Source: an uncultured Clostridia bacterium (GTDB lineage Bacteria > Bacillota > Clostridia > TANB77 > CAG-508). Taken from it: a DNA stretch of 64,000 nt. The stretch's first letter is position 1; each line of letters opens with the position of its first letter. The notes under the pieces are model-generated. The model did not search any database. It saw nothing but the letters and a program-made list of their open reading frames with translations, and was not told the DNA's origin. The stretch is from the NCBI GenBank assembly GCA_947581805.1, contig CANPVM010000002.1, positions 69,599 to 133,598 on the forward strand, written 5' to 3'. Positions 13,353 to 30,940 of this stretch are shown here, piece by piece. The translations under genes and the position numbers were made by a program.

Positions 13353-16001
13353 TTATACAACGACATTTGTTTCTGTTGTATTCGTATTTGTTGTATTTGT
13401 AGTTGTAGTTGTATTCGTAGTTGTATTATTATTTACTTCATTTGTAATGGTGTTTTGAGTATTGCCACCTTCTTCTGGCTTCTGTATTTTGTTAACCGTT
13501 AATGTAATTGTAGTTTCTTTCGCTACTTTTTCTTTTGCTTTAATACTTTGTTCTAGTACAATTCCATCTTTCTTCGTTTTGTCTTCTTTATATTTAATAC
13601 TTACTTTTAATCCTTGTTTTTCTAAAGCTTCTTTTGCTTGTTTTAGTGTCATTCCTACTACATTTAATACTTCTACTTTTTCTGGCTCTTTATGTACATC
13701 ACAGGTTTCTTCTGGCATATCATATTTGTCTCCGGCATCTGTAGACCATAAATTTGTATTTTCTTTTTGTGGTTTTACTAAGTAAGTTTTTTCTTCGGTC
13801 TCTTTACAATATTCTGTTGCAATTTTTCCTGTTTGTTTACATATTTTTAATTTGGTATGTCCTTCACATTCTTTTGGAAGAGTTCCTTTTACAAAAACTT
13901 CGGATATGGTTCTAGTACAAGAATCTGTTGCTAAACAACCTGAATCTTCACAAATTTTTGCATAAACAACGTTGCTTGGTCTTTGGAAACGAGCAGTTGG
14001 TAAGTCTTTATGAATATCTTTCATAACAGCTGCCCAAATATTAGCTGCATTATTTGTACTAAATACTGGATTTTCATTATAATCAAATCCAAACCAAACA
14101 GATGCTGTATAATATGGTGTAAAGCCACAAAGCCATCTATCTATGTAATGGTCTGTTGAACCTGTTTTAGCTCCTACGTCCATATTAGACATATAACATA
14201 CTGCTGCTGTTCCACTTCTTGCAGGTGATTTTAATAAATCTTGTAATACATAAGCATTGGCTTGTGACATTACTCTTCTCTTTTCTTGTTTTGATTCTAA
14301 AATGACATTTCCATTAGCATCTTCTACCTTTGTGTAGAAAATAGGGCTAATATATTCTCCATTATTTGCTACTGCTGCATAAGCTGCTGCCATATTAAGC
14401 GGGCTTACATCAGCTGTTCCTAATGCTAATGTAATACTTTCATGTCTACTATCAATTTCAATTCCTAAAGTTGATAAAAATTTAATAGCATTGGCAGGAC
14501 CTATTTCTTTCATAATTTTTAAATGTACAATATTAGAAGATTTTGCCAAAGCTGTTCGAATTGTCATTAACCCATGAAAACCATCTGAATTGTGTGGATT
14601 GCTATAATCTGCTCCAAAGCTAGTAGCAGAATCATCGTATACTGTTCCTGCTGTAATAATTCCGCTTTCTAGAGCTGGTGCTTCACAAGCAAGTGGTTTA
14701 ATAGAAGAACCTGTTTGTTTTCCTCTTAAAGCTCTATTGATACCAGTAGAATTTGAATCACTTCCTAAACCTCCGGCGCAAGCTACTACTTGCCCTGTTT
14801 TATGATCAATAATAACCATTCCTGCTTGCGTATGTGTATTAATTAAATTTCCTTCATCGTCTTTCTTTACACCACTTTTAATATATTTGTCTTTTAAAAA
14901 TTCCTCTTCCATTCTGTTTTGTATTGCTGTATCTTGTGTTGTATATACAGTATATCCATAGTTTTCTACCATAAATTGAGCGGTTTCTCTATTAACTCCT
15001 TTTTCTTCCATTAAGTCTTTAATCACTTGCTCAATAGCAGCTGATGTATGATAAGAATAAGTAATTTTTGAAACATTAGCACCTTGTTTAAATGGAAGAC
15101 CTGCTTCTACTTTTGCTACTGCGGAATTATATTCTTCTTCATTAATCATATTTTGGTCTTTCATTTGGAATAAAACTTCTTTTGTTCTATTAATAATAAG
15201 TTCTCCATTGTCTTCTCCTATAAATGGATTATATCTGCTAGGACCATGATTAATACCTGCTATAAAAGCACATTCTGCTAAATCTAATTCTGCTACTGGT
15301 TTATCAAAATAATATTCTGCTGCCATGCCCACACCATAAATAGTAGAACCCATTGGAATTTTATTTAAGTATAGTTCTAATATTTGATCTTTTGAAATAA
15401 TCTTCTCTAGATTGTAAGCACGTGCCATTTCTCTTATTTTTCTTTCAATTCCTGCTGCACCTTCGTCTGCATCATCATCCATTAAATTTTTAATTAATTG
15501 TTGTGTAATAGTACTTCCTCCACCTGCAGAAGATTCTCCTTTATTAATTGCATACATTACTGTAACATATGCCGTTCTTTTTATATCTATTCCCTTATGT
15601 TCATAAAACCTTTTATCTTCAATAGCAACAAAAGCTTTTGGTAAAAGTGCTGGCATATCAGACAAACTTACAATCTTTCTATTTTCTTTTCCAGATATTG
15701 TTGCAATTACCTCTCCATTTTTATCTTTTACACTACCATTAATTTGTTGAATTAGTAAATCTTCTTGTGTTAGTTTAAATTTATCACTAAAGAAGATACC
15801 TGCAATGATACCTATTCCAATTAAGCATAGTAAAATTCCTAAAACAAAGATAATTAAAATTGCTTTTTTTAGTTTTGGATGTTTTTTCTTTGCTTTTTTC
15901 TCTTTACTTTTTCTATGTATTTTTGTTTTATATTTTTTTGTTTTTTCTGTGTCTTCATAATTTGTTTTTGTTACCTTTTTTTTGCCATTTGATTTATTCA
16001 T
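13353..16001 (-). CDS. Class A penicillin-binding protein (PBP1A-type) with a C-terminal PASTA domain and a Thr/Asn-rich tail.
   Basis: Has the GT51 glycosyltransferase motifs (EDKRFYEHKGID), the transpeptidase SxxK/SxN/KTG motifs, a PASTA-like segment and a low-complexity NNNTTTNTTTTT end. Confidence 0.9.
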   Translation of the reverse strand: MNKSNGKKKVTKTNYEDTEKTKKYKTKIHRKSKEKKAKKKHPKLKKAILIIFVLGILLCLIGIGIIAGIFFSDKFKLTQEDLLIQQINGSVKDKNGEVIATISGKENRKIVSLSDMPALLPKAFVAIEDKRFYEHKGIDIKRTAYVTVMYAINKGESSAGGGSTITQQLIKNLMDDDADEGAAGIERKIREMARAYNLEKIISKDQILELYLNKIPMGSTIYGVGMAAEYYFDKPVAELDLAECAFIAGINHGPSRYNPFIGEDNGELIINRTKEVLFQMKDQNMINEEEYNSAVAKVEAGLPFKQGANVSKITYSYHTSAAIEQVIKDLMEEKGVNRETAQFMVENYGYTVYTTQDTAIQNRMEEEFLKDKYIKSGVKKDDEGNLINTHTQAGMVIIDHKTGQVVACAGGLGSDSNSTGINRALRGKQTGSSIKPLACEAPALESGIITAGTVYDDSATSFGADYSNPHNSDGFHGLMTIRTALAKSSNIVHLKIMKEIGPANAIKFLSTLGIEIDSRHESITLALGTADVSPLNMAAAYAAVANNGEYISPIFYTKVEDANGNVILESKQEKRRVMSQANAYVLQDLLKSPARSGTAAVCYMSNMDVGAKTGSTDHYIDRWLCGFTPYYTASVWFGFDYNENPVFSTNNAANIWAAVMKDIHKDLPTARFQRPSNVVYAKICEDSGCLATDSCTRTISEVFVKGTLPKECEGHTKLKICKQTGKIATEYCKETEEKTYLVKPQKENTNLWSTDAGDKYDMPEETCDVHKEPEKVEVLNVVGMTLKQAKEALEKQGLKVSIKYKEDKTKKDGIVLEQSIKAKEKVAKETTITLTVNKIQKPEEGGNTQNTITNEVNNNTTTNTTTTTNTTNTNTTETNVVV

Positions 16002-16162
16002 TTTTTATTTCCTCCTTGGCATAAAATTGACAGTTACATTATATTATATATTGCTTAAAATGAAAAGGTTTTTTAAGAAATTTTTAAGAAAAAAATATCA
16101 ATTTGATTATTTTACTAAGCAGATGTTTTTTCTTTAAAATTTTTCTTGTCTATATTTTATAT

Positions 16163-16199
16163 AACAAAAAATACTAGGCTTATTTGCCTAGTATTTTTT
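16163..16199 (-). terminator. Rho-independent terminator downstream of rny.
   Basis: The stem AATACTAGGC/GCCTAGTATT is flanked by an A-run and a T-run. Confidence 0.55.
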
Positions 16200-16201
16200 G
16201 T

Positions 16202-17743
16202 TTATTTTGCATAATCAATAACTCTAGTTTCTCTTACAACATTTACTTTAATTTGTCCTGGATAATCCATTTCATCTTCTACTTTCTTTGCGATATCTCT
16301 TGCCATTAATGTCATTTGACTATCTGATACTTTTTCCGGTTTTACAATAATTCTTACTTCACGACCTGCTTGAATTGCAAAAGATTTGTCTACCCCTTCA
16401 AAAGAATCTGCAATTTCTTCTAATTGTTGCAATCTCTTTATGTAAGCTTCTAAAGTTTCTCTTCTTGCTCCTGGTCTTGAAGCTGAAATAGCATCTGCTG
16501 CTTGTACTAATACTGCTTCCACACTTTGTGGCTCTACATCTCCATGATGAGCTTGTACGGCATTAATTACCATTTCATTTTCTTTGTACTTTCTAAGTAC
16601 ATCTACACCTATTTCTACGTGTGTTCCTTCCATATCATGATCTAATGCTTTTCCAATATCATGAAGTAACCCTGCTCTTCTTGCTAATTTTGGATCTAAA
16701 CCTAATTCTTCTGCCATAATTCTAGCTAAGTTGGAAACTTCAATAGAATGATTTAATACATTTTGTCCATAACTAGTTCTGTATTTTAGTTTTCCAAGTA
16801 GTTTAATTACATCTGGATGAAGACCAATGACACCAGCTTCCATGGCTGCTCTTTCGCCTTCTTCTTTAATAGTTGCTTCTAATTCTTCTTTTGCTTTTTC
16901 TACCATTTCTTCAATTTTAGCTGGATGAATTCTTCCATCTTCAATTAATTTTTCTAATGCCATTTTAGCAACTTCTCTACGTAGTGGATCAAAACCTGAA
17001 ATAACAACTGCTTCTGGTGTATCATCAATAATTAAATCAATTCCTGTTAAGGTTTCTAATGTTTTAATATTTCTTCCTTCTCTACCAATAATTCTTCCTT
17101 TCATATCGTCATTTGGAAGAGCTACTATGGATACTGTTGTTTCTTGAGAATGATCTGCTGCACATTTTTGAATTGCATAACTAATAATATTTTTTGCTGT
17201 TTTATCTGCTGTTTCCTTTGTTTTTTGTTCTAAGTCTTTAATTAAAGCTGCTTTCTCTGCTGTTATTTGTTTTTCTACTTCTGATAACAATTGTTTTTTT
17301 GCATCTTCTGCAGATAGGCCTGCAATACGTTGTAATTCAGACATTTGCCTATTGTACAATTCTTCTAACTCTTGTTTCTTTTTTTCATTTTCTTCTTGTT
17401 TAGTAAATAAGTCTTTTTCCTTTTTTTCTAATTGTTCCATTCTGTTTTCTAAATTTTCTTCTTTTTGAATTAAACGTTTTTCTTGTAGTTGTACTTCGCC
17501 TCTTCTTTCTCTAATCTCTTGATCTAATTCTTTTCGACTAGCCATAATTTCTTCTTTTGCCTTAAAGATTTCTTCTTTTTTCTTATTTTCTGCTTCTTTA
17601 TTTGCTAATTCTACAATTCTTTTTGCTTCATTTTCTGCACTTTTCATTTTAGATTCTGCTATTTTTTTTCTGATGAAAAAACCAACGAATGTAAAAATAA
17701 TAGCTGAGACTAGAAAAACGGCGATATTAATTATGATATCCAT
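16202..17743 (-). CDS. rny: Ribonuclease Y.
   Basis: Has an N-terminal TM helix, a coiled coil, a KH domain and an HD domain (LLHDIGK); 513 aa. Confidence 0.95.
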
Positions 17744-17885
17744 AATTTTACACCTCTTTCTATTAAATTTTCAATGTACATAAATATATATTACTCTAAT
17801 TATTTTTAGAATATATTTTGTCTCCTCTTCTATTTTATCTTTATTACTGTCAACTGTCAAGACATTTTCAAGAATTGGTAAAAAA

Positions 17886-17922
17886 AACTAAAAAAGTGAA
17901 CTTTGAAAGTTCACTTTTTTAT
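17886..17922 (-). terminator. Palindromic terminator downstream of xerD.
   Basis: AAAGTGAACTTTGAAAGTTCACTTT flanked by A- and T-runs; reads as a terminator in both directions. Confidence 0.55.
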
Positions 17923-17926
17923 AATC

Positions 17927-18808
17927 TTAAGCTCTTGGATGAGCTTTTTTATATACATTTTTTAATCCACTATCTTGAAATTGCATATATACTTGTGTAG
18001 AGGAAATATCAGAATGTCCAAGCATTGTTTGAATTGCTTTCAAGTCTGCTCCATTTTGTAAAAGATGTGTTGCAAAAGAATGTCTTAATACATGTGGGGT
18101 AATATCTTTTGTAATGTGAGCTTGTTCTTTATAATATTTTACAATTTTCCAAAAACCTTGTCTTGTTAATCTTTGACCATTTACATTGACAAATAAAGCT
18201 TTTACACTTTCGTCACGAATTAAAACTGGTCTTGCTTCTTCAATATATTCTTTTAATGCTTTTAAAGCAATAGCACCTAAAGGAATATTTCTTTGTTTTG
18301 AGCCTGAATGGCATACAACATAGCTTTCATCTAATTTTACATCTTGAATATCTAGAGAAATAATTTCTGTTACTCTCATTCCCGTTGCATAAGCAAATTC
18401 TAACATTGCTTTATCTCTAGTTCCTTTTAAGTCTACATCTTTTGGTTGGTCTAATAACAATTCTACTTCTTTTGCTGTTAGTACGCTAGGTGCTCTTTTT
18501 TCAATTTTTGGTGATTGAATATGTGCTGTTGGGTCTTGTTTTACTTTTTTATTTTTTACTAAAAATTGGTAGAAAGAACGAATAGAAGCTAAATTTCTTG
18601 ATATTGTAGATGCTTTCTTTCCTACTGATTGTAAATAATCTAAATAATTTTTAATATCTTCTTCTTTTACTTTTGCATAATTAATTTTATTGCTTTCTAC
18701 ATATTTGTTGTAGTATACAATATCTCTTCTATAAGATTGTAATGTGTTATCTGATGCTTTCTTTTCATTTTGAAGAAATTCTAAAAAAAGTTTTACTTGT
18801 TTTTCCAT
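17927..18808 (-). CDS. xerD: Tyrosine site-specific recombinase of the XerC/XerD family.
   Basis: The C-terminal catalytic region carries R...HxxR...Y (LRHSFATHLL and LGHSDISSTQVY); 293 aa. Confidence 0.8.
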   Translation of the reverse strand: MEKQVKLFLEFLQNEKKASDNTLQSYRRDIVYYNKYVESNKINYAKVKEEDIKNYLDYLQSVGKKASTISRNLASIRSFYQFLVKNKKVKQDPTAHIQSPKIEKRAPSVLTAKEVELLLDQPKDVDLKGTRDKAMLEFAYATGMRVTEIISLDIQDVKLDESYVVCHSGSKQRNIPLGAIALKALKEYIEEARPVLIRDESVKALFVNVNGQRLTRQGFWKIVKYYKEQAHITKDITPHVLRHSFATHLLQNGADLKAIQTMLGHSDISSTQVYMQFQDSGLKNVYKKAHPRA

Positions 18809-27077: not shown

Positions 27078-27956
27078 TTATTTTTCTTGTTCTTCTAAAA
27101 TACCATACGCCATTGCAATATCGGTTGGCACAATATATTTTGCACCAATTGCTTCTGCTACCACTAGAACAAAAGCACACATAGCTCGTGTTGCATACCA
27201 CCATTCTGAATCTTTTGTCTTTGCTTTTATAGCATTTAAAGAAATTTCTTTATAATACCTTTGTGTTTCTTGCTTTCTACTTTCTATGCTCATCATAATA
27301 GGAGATGCTATATCTTCATATAAAGTATTGGTTTCGTAGTAAATGCCAGAGTTCCTTGCAAATTTTTCGTGTCCACCTCCTGCTAGTATTAAAATATCTG
27401 CTTTTTCTTTTGGTAAATTTAATCGTTCTTTAATAAACTCTTTAACTTCTTCTAGAGGTGTTGTTGCAACATCTTCTGCTAAGTCTGGAAACTTTTGCAT
27501 AACATCTATTACACCTAATTTGGTATTTACACTTTCTTTGATTTGTCTATCAAAAATAGAAATTTCAGTAGAGCCTCCTCCTCCAATAAAGACACATACT
27601 TTGTCTTTCACAAAACGCGTAGTTCCTAATACAGTTAATTCGTTTTCTTTTTCTTGTGAAATAATATGAAAGTCATACCCGGTTTCTTCTTTAAAATAAT
27701 GAACAAAATTTTCTTTTTCTAATTGCTGTAATGTTCTAAAAATGCTTGTCCCACAAACATAGATATCTTCGGAAACTGCCTTTAATTCCTTAATGCTTTC
27801 AATTAATTCTTCTACATCTGTTTTTCTTAATTGTTTATCTTCATTATAATGTTTTTTAAATTGAATGGTTCTTCCTTCTAATTTTTCTATCTTTTTTCCA
27901 TCAAATTTATCTACTTTCGTGCAAGTAGAACCAACTTCTACTATAATTTTGTTCAT
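27078..27956 (-). CDS. Ppx/GppA-family (ASKHA-fold) phosphatase-like protein.
   Basis: The N-terminus 'VEVGSTCTKV', 'GTSIFRT' and 'IGGGGSTEISIF' match the motifs of the Ppx/GppA N-terminal domain; 292 aa. Confidence 0.45.
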   Translation of the reverse strand: MNKIIVEVGSTCTKVDKFDGKKIEKLEGRTIQFKKHYNEDKQLRKTDVEELIESIKELKAVSEDIYVCGTSIFRTLQQLEKENFVHYFKEETGYDFHIISQEKENELTVLGTTRFVKDKVCVFIGGGGSTEISIFDRQIKESVNTKLGVIDVMQKFPDLAEDVATTPLEEVKEFIKERLNLPKEKADILILAGGGHEKFARNSGIYYETNTLYEDIASPIMMSIESRKQETQRYYKEISLNAIKAKTKDSEWWYATRAMCAFVLVVAEAIGAKYIVPTDIAMAYGILEEQEK

Positions 27957-28093
27957 TTTACTTATCTCCTTGAACTAATATTCTTTTCTTTTTTATATCA
28001 CAAAACTTTGTATTTTCCTAGTAGTTTTTTAATATTTGTATCTTATTGTTTACGAAATATTTTTTTGTAAGCATTATCAAATTATCGTATCAT

Positions 28094-28244
28094 GAAAAGT
28101 GGTGTAATGATTTATTTGTAAGAGCTGCGTAAGCGACTAACCGAAGCGTAGCGTAGGGCGAATGGAGCAACTTACATATATTATTTTAGATTATGAAAGT
28201 TGCGACAACAAAGCTTCTTACAAATAAATCATTACATCACTTTT
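28094..28244. other. A roughly 150-bp element in the mgtA leader: 29/30-bp inverted repeats flanking a GC-rich core of about 90 bp.
   Basis: The left arm GAAAAGTGGTGTAATGATTTATTTGTAAGAG pairs with the right arm CTTCTTACAAATAAATCATTACATCACTTTT with one mismatch. The core is GCTGCGTAAGCGACTAACCGAAGCGTAGCGTAGGGCGAATGGAGCAAC. Confidence 0.5.
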
Positions 28245-28333
28245 AAAAAAATAAGAAATATTATATTTTTTTAACTACTTTTTCAAAATAGTGGTATACT
28301 ATAAAAAAATAATAAATTGGAGTTGATAATTTT

Positions 28334-30940
28334 ATGGCAGACGCTAAAGAAGAAGTAGATGTAGCAAAATTATATGGAAAGGAAGCTACCTTATCAAAAG
28401 AACAATTTATGAAAGATTTTTCTGTTTCTACAGAAGGGCTTAATGCTAATACTGCAAAAGAAAATTTAGAAAAATTCGGTCTAAATGAGATAACTGGTGC
28501 AAAGCCAAAAAAGTGGTATCATTATTTTTTAGAAAGTCTTCTTTCCCCTTTTAACTGTATTTTACTTGGAATTGTATTTATTCTATTTTATACTGACGTT
28601 TATTTAGCAGAAGAAGCAAGTTATGCCAATATTATTGTCATTGCTATTTTAGTTTCTGCAAGTACCTTTTTAGATTTTTTTGAAGAATATCGTTCGAATA
28701 AAGCAGCAGAAAAATTAAAAGAGTTAGTAGCAACTACTACAACTGTCATTCGTGAAGGAAAAGAAATGCAAATACCAATGAAAGAAGTGGTACTTGGTGA
28801 TATCGTTCTTCTTTCCGCTGGTAGCATGATTCCTGCTGATTTAAGAGTGTTAGAGGCAAAAGATTTATATGTAGGGCAATCTTCTTTAACTGGTGAATCA
28901 GAGGCTGTAAAAAAATCATCAGAACCTAGTCTTGCTATGGAAGAAATTGAAAATATTGCCGATTTGGAAACCATTTGTTTTATGGGCACCAATGTTACTT
29001 CTGGAAGTGCCAAGGCGGTGGTTATTAAAACTGGAGATGATACCTATTTTGGAAAAGTAGCTCATACGCTTTCTACTGGTAAACCTAAAACTGCTTTTCA
29101 AGAAGGAATTGAAAACATTAGTAGGCTTCTTATTCGTTTTATGGTCATTATTATTCCTATTGTTTTTCTTTTAAATGCTTGGAAGCATCATGTTATTCTT
29201 GCTTTTACTTTTGCGGTTGCCATTGCTATTTGTATTACACCTCTTTTACTTCCTGTTATTTTATCTTCTAGTTTGTCTAAAGGCGCTGTTCGTATGTCAA
29301 AAAAGAAAACTATTGTAAAAAAACTAGATTCTATTCAAAATTTTGGCGCTATGAATATTTTGTGTACGGATAAAACAGGAACTTTAACCAAAGACGAAAT
29401 TGTTCTTGAAAAATACTTAGATATAAAAGGTAATGAAGACATTCGTGTTTTAAAGCATGCTTTTCTAAATTCTTATTTTCAAACTGGCTTAAAGGGTAAT
29501 ATTGATGAGGCAGTAATTAAAAGAGGTTTGGAAAATGGAATGGAAACTTTCCAAACTAAATATAAAAAAATAGATGAAATTCCTTTTGATTTTTCTCGTA
29601 GGCGCTTATCTGTTATTTTACAAGACGAAAATAAAAAGCAAATGATTACCAAAGGTGCAGTGGAAGAAATTTTAAGTATTTGCAGTCTTGTGGATTATCA
29701 AGGACAAGTTAGCCCTATTACAAAAGAAATTAAAAAACAGATTTTAGATATTAGTAAAAGTTTAAATGAAGATGGCTTAAGAGTAGTTGCGGTATGCCAA
29801 AAAAATGACATTGAAAATATTACAAATTTTGATGTTTCAGCCGAATCAAACATGGTTTTAATGGGATTTATTGGCTTTTTAGACCCACCAAAAGAAACCG
29901 CAAAAGAATCTATTTTGAAATTAAATAAAGCTGGTATTCGTGTGATTGTTCTTACTGGTGATAATTTAGAAGTAACAAGAGCAGTATGTAATAAAGTTGG
30001 TATTAACTCAAAAAGAATTGTGGTAGGAAGTCAAATTGATAAATTAAGTGATATTGCTCTTTTAAGACATTTACGCAATACCAATATTTTTGCCAAACTT
30101 TCTCCTATTCAAAAAGCAAGAATTGTACGTCTTTTAAAGACATCTGGTAACATTGTTGGTTATATGGGAGATGGCATTAATGATGGTCCTTCTCTACTTA
30201 ATTCCGATGTTGGTGTGTCTGTCGATACAGCTGTTGATATTGCGAAAGAATCTGCCGATATCATTTTACTAGAAAAAGATTTAAATGTATTATTTGACGG
30301 TGTAACAGAAGGTAGAAGAACTTTTGTTAATTTAATGAAATATATTAAAATGGCTACTAGCTTTAACTTTGGAGAAGTGCTTTCAGTTATGATTGGTAGT
30401 GTACTTTTACCTTTCTTACCTGAAACACCAATTCAATTATTGGTAGAAGGTTTATTATATGATTTTGGACAAATGACACTTCCTTTTGATAATGTTGATA
30501 AAGAAGCTTTGCAAAAGCCAAAAAAACTAGATATTAAAGGTCTAAAACGATTTATGTTTTTTATGGGTCCTTTAAGTTCTTTGTTTGACTTACTAATTTT
30601 TGCTTATGTATGGTTTGTATTTAACATTCACGAAGTTGCTATGTTCCAAAGTATTTGGTTTACTTATAGCATTATTTCCAATTTGCTTGGACTTTATATT
30701 ATTCGAACAGCGAAAAATCCTTGGAATGGTAGCAAACCAAGTAAAGCAATATATTTTTCTTCTATTTTAATTATTATCATTTCGCTTATCATTCCTTACA
30801 CACCTTTAGGAAAAGCAATTGGTCTTGTTCCTATTGGATTTGGCATTATTGCAGTATTATTTATGATGTCTTTTCTGTACTGCATTGTGGCAAGCTTTGC
30901 GAAAAAAACTTACATTCGAAAATATGGAGAATGGATTTAA
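28334..30940 (+). CDS. mgtA: Magnesium-translocating P-type ATPase.
   Basis: Has the P-type motifs DKTGTLT and GDGINDGPSL with ten TM helices, and resembles MgtA/MgtB along its full length; 868 aa. Confidence 0.9.
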   Translation: MADAKEEVDVAKLYGKEATLSKEQFMKDFSVSTEGLNANTAKENLEKFGLNEITGAKPKKWYHYFLESLLSPFNCILLGIVFILFYTDVYLAEEASYANIIVIAILVSASTFLDFFEEYRSNKAAEKLKELVATTTTVIREGKEMQIPMKEVVLGDIVLLSAGSMIPADLRVLEAKDLYVGQSSLTGESEAVKKSSEPSLAMEEIENIADLETICFMGTNVTSGSAKAVVIKTGDDTYFGKVAHTLSTGKPKTAFQEGIENISRLLIRFMVIIIPIVFLLNAWKHHVILAFTFAVAIAICITPLLLPVILSSSLSKGAVRMSKKKTIVKKLDSIQNFGAMNILCTDKTGTLTKDEIVLEKYLDIKGNEDIRVLKHAFLNSYFQTGLKGNIDEAVIKRGLENGMETFQTKYKKIDEIPFDFSRRRLSVILQDENKKQMITKGAVEEILSICSLVDYQGQVSPITKEIKKQILDISKSLNEDGLRVVAVCQKNDIENITNFDVSAESNMVLMGFIGFLDPPKETAKESILKLNKAGIRVIVLTGDNLEVTRAVCNKVGINSKRIVVGSQIDKLSDIALLRHLRNTNIFAKLSPIQKARIVRLLKTSGNIVGYMGDGINDGPSLLNSDVGVSVDTAVDIAKESADIILLEKDLNVLFDGVTEGRRTFVNLMKYIKMATSFNFGEVLSVMIGSVLLPFLPETPIQLLVEGLLYDFGQMTLPFDNVDKEALQKPKKLDIKGLKRFMFFMGPLSSLFDLLIFAYVWFVFNIHEVAMFQSIWFTYSIISNLLGLYIIRTAKNPWNGSKPSKAIYFSSILIIIISLIIPYTPLGKAIGLVPIGFGIIAVLFMMSFLYCIVASFAKKTYIRKYGEWI

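Follow-up and report, generated by a model that had tools for sequence, protein, structure and literature searches.

A dispersed, undescribed hairpin repeat with a conserved core upstream of mgtA in uncultured gut Clostridia

The hairpin element of 151 nt that is situated upstream of the Mg2+-ATPase gene mgtA in the stretch of DNA analysed here (64,000 nucleotides from an uncultured Clostridia bacterium, called the window) is one copy of a dispersed non-coding hairpin repeat of AT-rich, uncultured gut Clostridia. At this locus it forms a recent insertion/deletion polymorphism and is probably a bystander to mgtA, and the family has probably spread as a selfish non-autonomous element. The family is characterized by a centre that is nearly constant in sequence and by ends that differ from copy to copy.

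The element and the mgtA locus

The features of the locus are given below, in window coordinates.

27078..27956, − strand: Ppx/GppA-family gene, divergent, with its start 137 nt from the element
28060..28244, no strand: lineage-specific segment, i.e., a 34-nt filler (28060-28093) and the 151-nt hairpin, delimited by blastn against sister strains
28065..28093, + strand: candidate promoter-like site TTGTAA-17-TATCAT (consensus scan, 9/12 matches; present in L002)
28094..28123, + strand: left arm, 5′ side of stem P1 (arm pairing; P1 covariation over 25 copies)
28124..28215, + strand: conserved GC-rich core, predicted four-way junction (invariant columns, structure, covariance-model match)
28127..28134, + strand: H1, mini-hairpin GC-GUAA-GC with a GNRA-type tetraloop (pairs at alignment columns 37-44 and 38-43)
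28141..28157, + strand: H2, irregular hairpin CC-GRA-GC-G(N)NA-GC-GUA-GG (columns 51-68)
28151-28168, + strand: core 18-mer GCGTAGGGCGAATGGAGC, the probe of the family search
28163..28207, + strand: P2, variable hairpin (GCAACTT...AAGTTGC), closed by U-A, G-C, tandem G·A/A·G, G-C and C-G
28216..28244, + strand: right arm, 3′ side of P1 (arm pairing; missing, like the core, from L002)
28271..28300, + strand: conserved mgtA promoter, with -35-like TTAACT and extended -10 TGGTATACT (consensus scan; orthologue conservation)
28334..30940, + strand: mgtA, Mg2+-translocating P-type ATPase of 868 aa, a neighbour outside the element

The initial annotation of this DNA had described a near-perfect palindrome around a GC-rich core, and both parts of that description hold. 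A repeat search of the window returned inverted-repeat arms at 28095-28123 and 28216-28244 (29 nt, 97% complementary) around a spacer of 92 nt; the sole mismatch, G28102 versus T, corresponds to a G·U pair on the + strand. In the 64-kb window, this pattern is found at two sites only (0 expected from 100 shuffles), and blastn returned no second copy of the whole element. The GC content is 0.48 at 28110-28169, versus 0.13-0.25 in the flanking intergenic DNA and 0.289 in the whole window, and the core contains the hairpin of its own that had been reported, formed by GCAACTTACATA (28167-28178) and TATGAAAGTTGC (28192-28203). The RNA fold of 28085-28340 has a predicted energy of -73.4 kcal/mol (z = -9.3); none of 200 shuffled sequences was equally stable. 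Within the left arm, the outer ~11 nt (GAAAAGTGGTG) are peculiar to the window copy, and the inner part (TAATGATTTATTTGTAAG) is common to the subfamily members L016 and L019 and to the type-A copies described below.

The element does not contain an ORF, a small one (MKSGVMIYL) starting at 28092 having been dismissed since it has no ribosome-binding site. A terminator scan at the element and a search for tRNA and tmRNA genes returned nothing. The promoter-like site at 28065-28093, which ends 1 base 5′ of the hairpin, could drive transcription of the element, a consensus match being weak evidence in such AT-rich DNA.

The downstream gene was confirmed as a genuine Mg2+-translocating P-type ATPase (TIGR01524, 962 bits versus a cut-off of 611), with its start codon 89 nt 3′ of the element. 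The element had also been placed in the mgtA leader, and this position had to be revised. A promoter block, TTACTTTTTCAAAATAGTGGTATAMT, is kept about 35 nt before the start codon in five orthologues of which MgtA is 80-98% identical. The orthologue set includes L002 (98% aa identity), L003 (86%), L005 (81%) and L006 (80%), and the promoter is also present in L067, L069 and L070. The sequence 5′ of the block is different in each orthologue locus. Because the element ends at 28244, 27 nt upstream of the -35 box of this conserved promoter (28271-28300), which is a predicted promoter supported by its conservation, it would lie upstream of the mgtA promoter and outside the leader. The inferred 5′ UTR of mgtA is ~30 nt long and holds a ribosome-binding site only. 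As the Ppx/GppA gene at the other side is divergent and starts 137 nt away, the element is located in a divergent promoter region. At L006 2157-2440, just 5′ of the conserved promoter of the orthologue with 80% identity, there are a 68-aa ORF and a GC-richer stretch that includes a terminator-like hairpin (GGGGCTCTTTTTTTT). Nothing in Rfam matches it, and it bears no relation to the window element.

At the mgtA locus, the element is an insertion/deletion polymorphism among strains. Sister-strain loci were drawn from the same 90% protein cluster (L067/L068, L069 and L070); their mgtA is 95% identical to that of the window at the nucleotide and 98% at the amino acid level, and the element is missing at the mgtA site. 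In blastn comparisons with L070, L067 and L069, homology to the window breaks at 28059 and restarts at 28241-28245. In place of 28060-28244, unrelated sequence is present, i.e., 13 nt (ATGTCATTTTAGT) in L070 and L067 and 39 nt in L069. The empty alleles of L070 and L067 do not contain GAAAAGTGGTG, and their 13-nt filler loosely resembles the right outer arm. As the changed segment is 185 nt long (34-nt filler and hairpin) and replaces 13 nt in the sisters, this is not a clean insertion. In L002, the 34-nt filler is retained, and the left arm (GAAAAGTGGTGTAAGGATTTATTTGTAA) is followed directly by the right flank, core and right arm being absent; the junction has microhomology (TTTGTAA / CTTTTAA). 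No solo arms were found besides the one of L002. The element is also absent from L003, L005 and L006, and the covariance model described below detects no copy in the orthologue and sister-strain loci. Conservation of the element 5′ of mgtA in relatives, which a regulatory role for mgtA would have led one to expect, was thus not found. Because sister strains do without the element and L002 with no more than its left arm, it would be dispensable for mgtA.

The locus is variable in other respects as well. Among 95%-identical strains, the spot between CGAAATA and AAAAAATAA, 5′ of the mgtA promoter, is hypervariable, with three unrelated fillers of 13, 39 and 34 nt (window 28060-28093; L070 2899-2912; L067 9899-9912; L069 2875-2908). 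The window filler includes ATTTTTTTGTAAGC, which resembles the inner arm ATTTATTTGTAAGAGC of the element; searches for the origin of this 34-nt filler gave no informative match. A second strain-level polymorphism concerns the Ppx/GppA gene itself. It lies between a PBP gene and mgtA in the window and in L070, which shares this arrangement even though it has no element, and it is missing in L002, L067/L068 and L069, where the PBP gene is directly 5′ of mgtA.

A dispersed family in gut Clostridia

To find further copies, one genome per species was scanned for exact matches to the core 18-mer. Among the 45 loci returned from these species representatives, 4 are chance matches in GC-rich genomes and 41 are real, and the latter are spread over 7 MAGs of uncultured gut Clostridia/Eubacteriales from rabbit, goat, mouse and human gut. 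The family comprises ~50 copies over seven gut Clostridia MAGs, with about 37-40 in the rabbit-gut MAG Lapin-015 bin77 (hereafter bin77). In JGI metagenomes, 2 of 13 matches to the 18-mer are real, namely a new copy (L057) and L066, which is the same as L044. Viral contigs contain no match to the 18-mer; their one match to an arm 19-mer is inside coding sequence and was judged a chance match. Plasmid and phage collections have no blastn match to 28060-28335.

A covariance model, R1, was built on 25 non-redundant copies. In 312 kb of family loci, 52 matches reach 100 bits or more. The window has only one (28093-28245, 145 bits, E = 5e-31), and the 165 kb examined from its own species group have none. 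R1 additionally finds copies in which the 18-mer is mutated (L012 1246-1394, L020 162-311, L039 2734-2883, L036 7201-7351, and L027 1481-1631). The further copies by which a MITE could be recognized thus exist, with 8-bp duplications only round the carrier of the type-A copies. Some proteins encoded beside the copies are at least 60% identical to window proteins, and the host MAGs are therefore relatives of the window organism. The window regions 16001-16202 and 17743-17927 are syntenic with contig 1 of bin77 (L049, L024). The orthologous intergenic regions of bin77 hold one type-B and one type-A copy and those of the window only ordinary terminators, which provides further filled/empty contrasts between related species.

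Every copy is intergenic. None of the other 51 strong matches adjoins mgtA; they are situated beside unrelated genes, in both orientations, and no gene family recurs beside the copies. The 23 copies of the window's type (type B, see below) lie between convergent (4), tandem (12) or divergent (5) genes, the remaining 2 having no called gene on one side. A same-strand gene is present downstream in 6 of 20 type-B copies, according to a first tally. Where the neighbours are co-directional, the G-rich strand of the element is antisense to them in 21 of 28 cases (p ~0.01, our own binomial estimate). An all-against-all clustering of 360 flanking ORFs, from ~300 kb of flanks, revealed no multi-copy ORF such as a transposase.

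The hairpin repeat family is undescribed, as it matches nothing in Rfam or in the literature. The window as a whole has no Rfam match at the gathering score, 27950-28400 has nothing relevant at E ≤ 10, and five loci with diverse copies of both hairpin families (the second is described below) have nothing at E ≤ 1. The orthologous mgtA loci do not match Rfam either. A full-text search with substrings of the core returned no paper with the core sequence.

Conserved centre and variable ends

The layout of the unit was derived from an alignment of 25 copies, RNAalifold and pair counts. The unit consists of a stem of 25-33 bp and a GC-rich core with ~55 conserved nt, in which 37 alignment columns are invariant. 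On the G-rich strand, the core is predicted to form a four-way junction between the stem, two mini-hairpins and a variable hairpin. Its parts follow each other as H1 (GC-GUAA-GC), the linker A-YY-AA, H2, the junction strand GCGAA, P2, and the junction strand CCAA that leads into P1. The core is invariant over the MAGs from rabbit, goat, mouse and human gut, whereas the arms diverge completely.

The stem covaries. Pairing cells amount to 93.3% in the alignment, versus 76.4% after shuffling. Moreover, 190 cells are changed on both sides, versus 61 in shuffled and 30-50 in slid controls, and 0 of 500 shuffles reach the observed value. Changes on both sides affect 26 of the 42 pairs overall (21/25 in P1, 5/10 in P2); inside the core, only the H2 closing pair and the R·U position covary. 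The H1 pairs are kept in 23 of the 25 copies, and inspection of the sequences of the variants L008, L016 and L047 shows that a hairpin is retained there as well, shifted in register (CG-CAYA-CG). In the diverged copies L036 7201-7351 and L027 1481-1631, H2 is closed by A-U instead of C-G.

Three observations suggest that it is the G-rich strand that folds. The R of H2 that faces U gives a G·U pair in 16 copies and an A-U pair in 9. In L051a, L051b and L057, the 3′ strand of P2 reads GUUUCA, which converts the G·A pairs to G·U and A-U. Finally, in 24 of 25 copies the − strand folds less stably than the + strand, with a mean difference of 5.1 kcal/mol; this comparison is biased by the G·U pairs that G-rich strands gain.

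In a set of 24 near-identical copies, the differences fall in predicted loops, in linkers and at the wobble position (YY, R, N), with hardly any change in the arms or elsewhere in the core. In the type-A copies (L008-L047, 24 aligned), this variation is found at four core positions, GCGA-YY-AACCG-R-AGCG-N-AGCG, and three further variable positions lie in the terminal repeats of their carrier (GTTAC-NNN-ATAATG). At two of the variable core spots, the type-A consensus is a GATC and a CCGG site, and restriction-site avoidance or deamination of methyl-cytosine may contribute to the variation of the type-A core. The copy at L027 3507-3690 has an extra insertion of ~35 nt in the P2 loop, which is itself a perfect terminator-like hairpin (AAAAAATCGAAGAAAG...CTTCGATTTTTTT), and thus forms a nested palindrome.

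Two types of copies can be distinguished. Type A, with ~30 copies, all from bin77, has the hairpin unit inside a MITE, termed the carrier, which ends in the repeats GTTACAGGATAATGG...CCATTATCCTGTAAC and is flanked by 8-bp target-site duplications, such as CATTTTTG in L008, TTATTTTT in L010 and GATTTGCA in L011. At L016 4205-4262, a 58-bp carrier is present that does not contain the hairpin unit and has the 8-bp duplication CATTAAGC. This short carrier holds little beyond the terminal repeats; it does not have CTATTCT, the inverted copy of its left flank AGAATAG, and shows TGAAA microhomology at the junction. At L038 5193-5415, the same carrier repeats enclose another hairpin, the GC-rich core of which is different, so that carrier and hairpin unit are separable.

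This other hairpin belongs to a second multi-copy hairpin family of bin77 (L038 5231-5385; L040 1499-1639 and 7109-7249; L049 3254-3394 and 7459-7599; L030 7829-7967). It has arms GGAAGTAATATATTTAATTT around a different GC-rich core, GACGCGTAGCATGGGAGCGAC...GACGACCAACAAGGAACGAGTC. Arm changes are compensated here as well (GGAAG/CTTCC versus GTACG/CGTAC), and there is no Rfam match.

Type B comprises 23 copies, including the one in the window, that have no carrier. No direct target-site duplication is found at the window copy or at the 22 others. Their inner arms (15-24 nt) are common within a subfamily only, the window copy and L016 sharing TAATGATTTATTTGTAAGAGC; their outer arms (6-13 bp) are unique to each copy and are still complementary. 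L051a and L051b, for example, have identical 93-nt cores at two different sites and different outer arms. The termini are thus the least conserved part of type B and the centre is the most conserved one. Palindromic targets, inverted copying of the flank, and gene conversion of cores between old copies are candidates for the origin of the outer arms. Insertion into the loops of pre-existing terminators was rejected as a general rule, because 5 copies, including the window's, are situated in divergent promoter regions. At L049, the terminator of the neighbouring gene is intact beside the element.

Possible origins and related systems

The findings are probably best explained by a selfish non-autonomous element, MITE- or REPIN-like, that would spread via a folded single-stranded intermediate. 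A trans-acting enzyme would recognize the conserved core and not the termini, and the complementarity of the arms would be kept either by selection on the hairpin or by copying of one arm from the other. The alleles with the left arm only (L002, and the 58-bp carrier of L016) may be footprints of asymmetric excision or slippage, and any effect on mgtA would be incidental. Mobility is supported by the ~30 copies that ride in a carrier MITE with 8-bp duplications and by the identical cores of L051a and L051b at two sites. For the window-type copies, with neither a target-site duplication nor conserved termini, we infer transposition. Several findings argue against this explanation: no transposase, RAYT or other partner enzyme was found among the ORFs of the ~300 kb of flanks, the 185-nt indel at mgtA is not a clean insertion, and the window's own species apparently has very few copies.

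An RNA that benefits the host would also be compatible with a deeply conserved core that varies only where the structure is not affected. In that case, the copies would be structured small RNA genes or modules held in place by selection, with the hairpin-plus-junction RNA as the predicted active product. Its role might be, for example, that of a ribozyme, a protein-binding decoy, an insulator, a terminator or an element for mRNA stability, and the promoter-like site at 28065-28093 would drive transcription of the window copy. The core that stays invariant across the four gut hosts while the arms diverge is consistent with this, as is the strand-specific structure seen in the G·U/A-U alternation, the GUUUCA variant and the greater + strand stability. 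Moreover, the restriction of changes to loops, linkers and the wobble position in the 24 near-identical copies suggests that purifying selection acts on the individual copies, the CUUUU at the end of many 3′ arms recalls intrinsic terminators, and the promoter-like site that abuts the window copy is kept by L002. However, a host function is hard to reconcile with ~40 copies in one genome and none or one in close relatives, and with presence or absence among 95%-identical strains. In addition, there is no consistent orientation or distance with respect to genes, the G-rich strand being antisense in 21 of the 28 co-directional pairs, many copies hitch-hike in a MITE that forms target-site duplications, and the terminator scan at the window copy was empty. 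A host RNA is considered unlikely, but it is a serious rival in view of the depth of core conservation and of the variation pattern in the near-identical copies. An sRNA, which was among the initial proposals, is possible given the strand-specific structure of the conserved core.

A bolder reading, distinctly unlikely in our estimation, would make the family a new class of self-propagating structured element. The four-way-junction core would then be the active part, for example as a small ribozyme or as the site that a single-strand-specific recombinase recognizes and cleaves, and the arms would be regenerated by fold-back copying. Such copying would explain the copy-specific yet complementary arms, the alleles with one arm and the missing target-site duplications. 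If this were true, the second hairpin family of bin77 would be a sister class.

A MITE inserted into the promoter was among the initial proposals. Of this proposal, the dispersed multi-copy hairpin repeat and its insertion/deletion polymorphism were borne out; a target-site duplication and conserved termini were not found. In its plain cut-and-paste form, in which a DDE transposase acts on terminal inverted repeats and direct duplications arise on insertion, it is very improbable. It agrees with the ~30 type-A copies of bin77, with their outer repeats and 8-bp duplications, and with the 58-bp carrier of L016, duplicated at its target without the hairpin unit. The window copy and the 22 other type-B copies, however, have neither outer repeats nor direct duplications, conservation that is weakest at the termini and strongest in the centre is the reverse of that in a MITE, and a carrier that encloses a different core at L038 is separable from the unit.

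Control of mgtA by a novel riboswitch or leader, responsive to Mg2+ or otherwise, which had also been put forward, is virtually untenable: although a genuine mgtA adjoins a strong fold and transcription from the promoter-like site 5′ of the element could in principle include it in a long leader, the conserved mgtA promoter is 3′ of it, the element is absent from L003, L005, L006, L067, L069 and L070 and truncated in L002, and the other 51 strong matches are beside unrelated genes in both orientations. The element does not resemble the M-box, as had been noted correctly: neither the M-box (RF00380) nor Mg_sensor (RF01056) has a match in the window, the locus or the orthologous loci. With the M-box (ykoK) and the Mg2+ sensors of the enterobacterial mgtA leader, it shares only the neighbourhood of mgtA. 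It differs from them in Rfam sequence and structure, in its position upstream of the promoter, in its absence from orthologues and in its presence at unrelated loci.

Returning to the selfish non-autonomous element, REPINs would be its closest parallel among known systems. The arms of a REPIN are two inverted REPs, palindromes of 20-40 nt that are tagged GTAG or CGTC, and the REP-RAYT system includes a single-copy RAYT gene flanked by repeats. We know of no IS element that is related to the window family. REPINs are REP doublets forming hairpins that are mobilised by RAYT tyrosine transposases (PMC3116915; PMC3733652); compensatory changes in their arms and asymmetric excision that leaves part of one arm have been described (PMC3116915). 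Like REPINs, the window family consists of short non-coding, intergenic, multi-copy hairpins of ~100-150 nt that lack target-site duplications, are kept paired in their arms by compensatory changes and would act as folded single strands. The one-arm remnants of L002 and the L016 carrier recall those of asymmetric excision, and GTAG tetranucleotides occur in the conserved part of the family (GCGTAGCGTAGGG), though inside the central core. Unlike in the family described here, it is the arms (REPs) of REPINs that are conserved and the spacer that varies. Besides, the core of the family is a predicted multi-helix junction instead of a simple palindrome, and its hosts are Clostridia, whereas those of the REPINs described so far are mostly Proteobacteria.

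Bacterial MITEs that fold as RNA, i.e., Correia/NEMIS, ERIC, RUP and bcr1 of Bacillus cereus (PMC3733652; PMC3184786), are similar as non-coding inverted repeats of 70-300 bp beside genes, with robust hairpins and a copy number that depends on strain and species. The family is likewise multi-copy, non-coding and shorter than 300 bp, and type A has terminal repeats and 8-bp duplications. The window-type copies differ by having neither a duplication nor conserved termini, and by a conservation that is strongest internally.

For the biology of these Clostridia, this means that mgtA is apparently expressed from a short unstructured leader, and the palindrome should therefore not be annotated as a riboswitch. 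The copy number, which ranges from 0-1 to ~40 between related MAGs, makes the family a practical marker. In the family, the logic of MITEs and REPINs is reversed, as the folded centre is conserved and the ends vary. If the core were catalytic or the handle of a new single-strand recombinase, the family would represent a new type of small mobile element and would offer a compact, conserved RNA or DNA junction to study.
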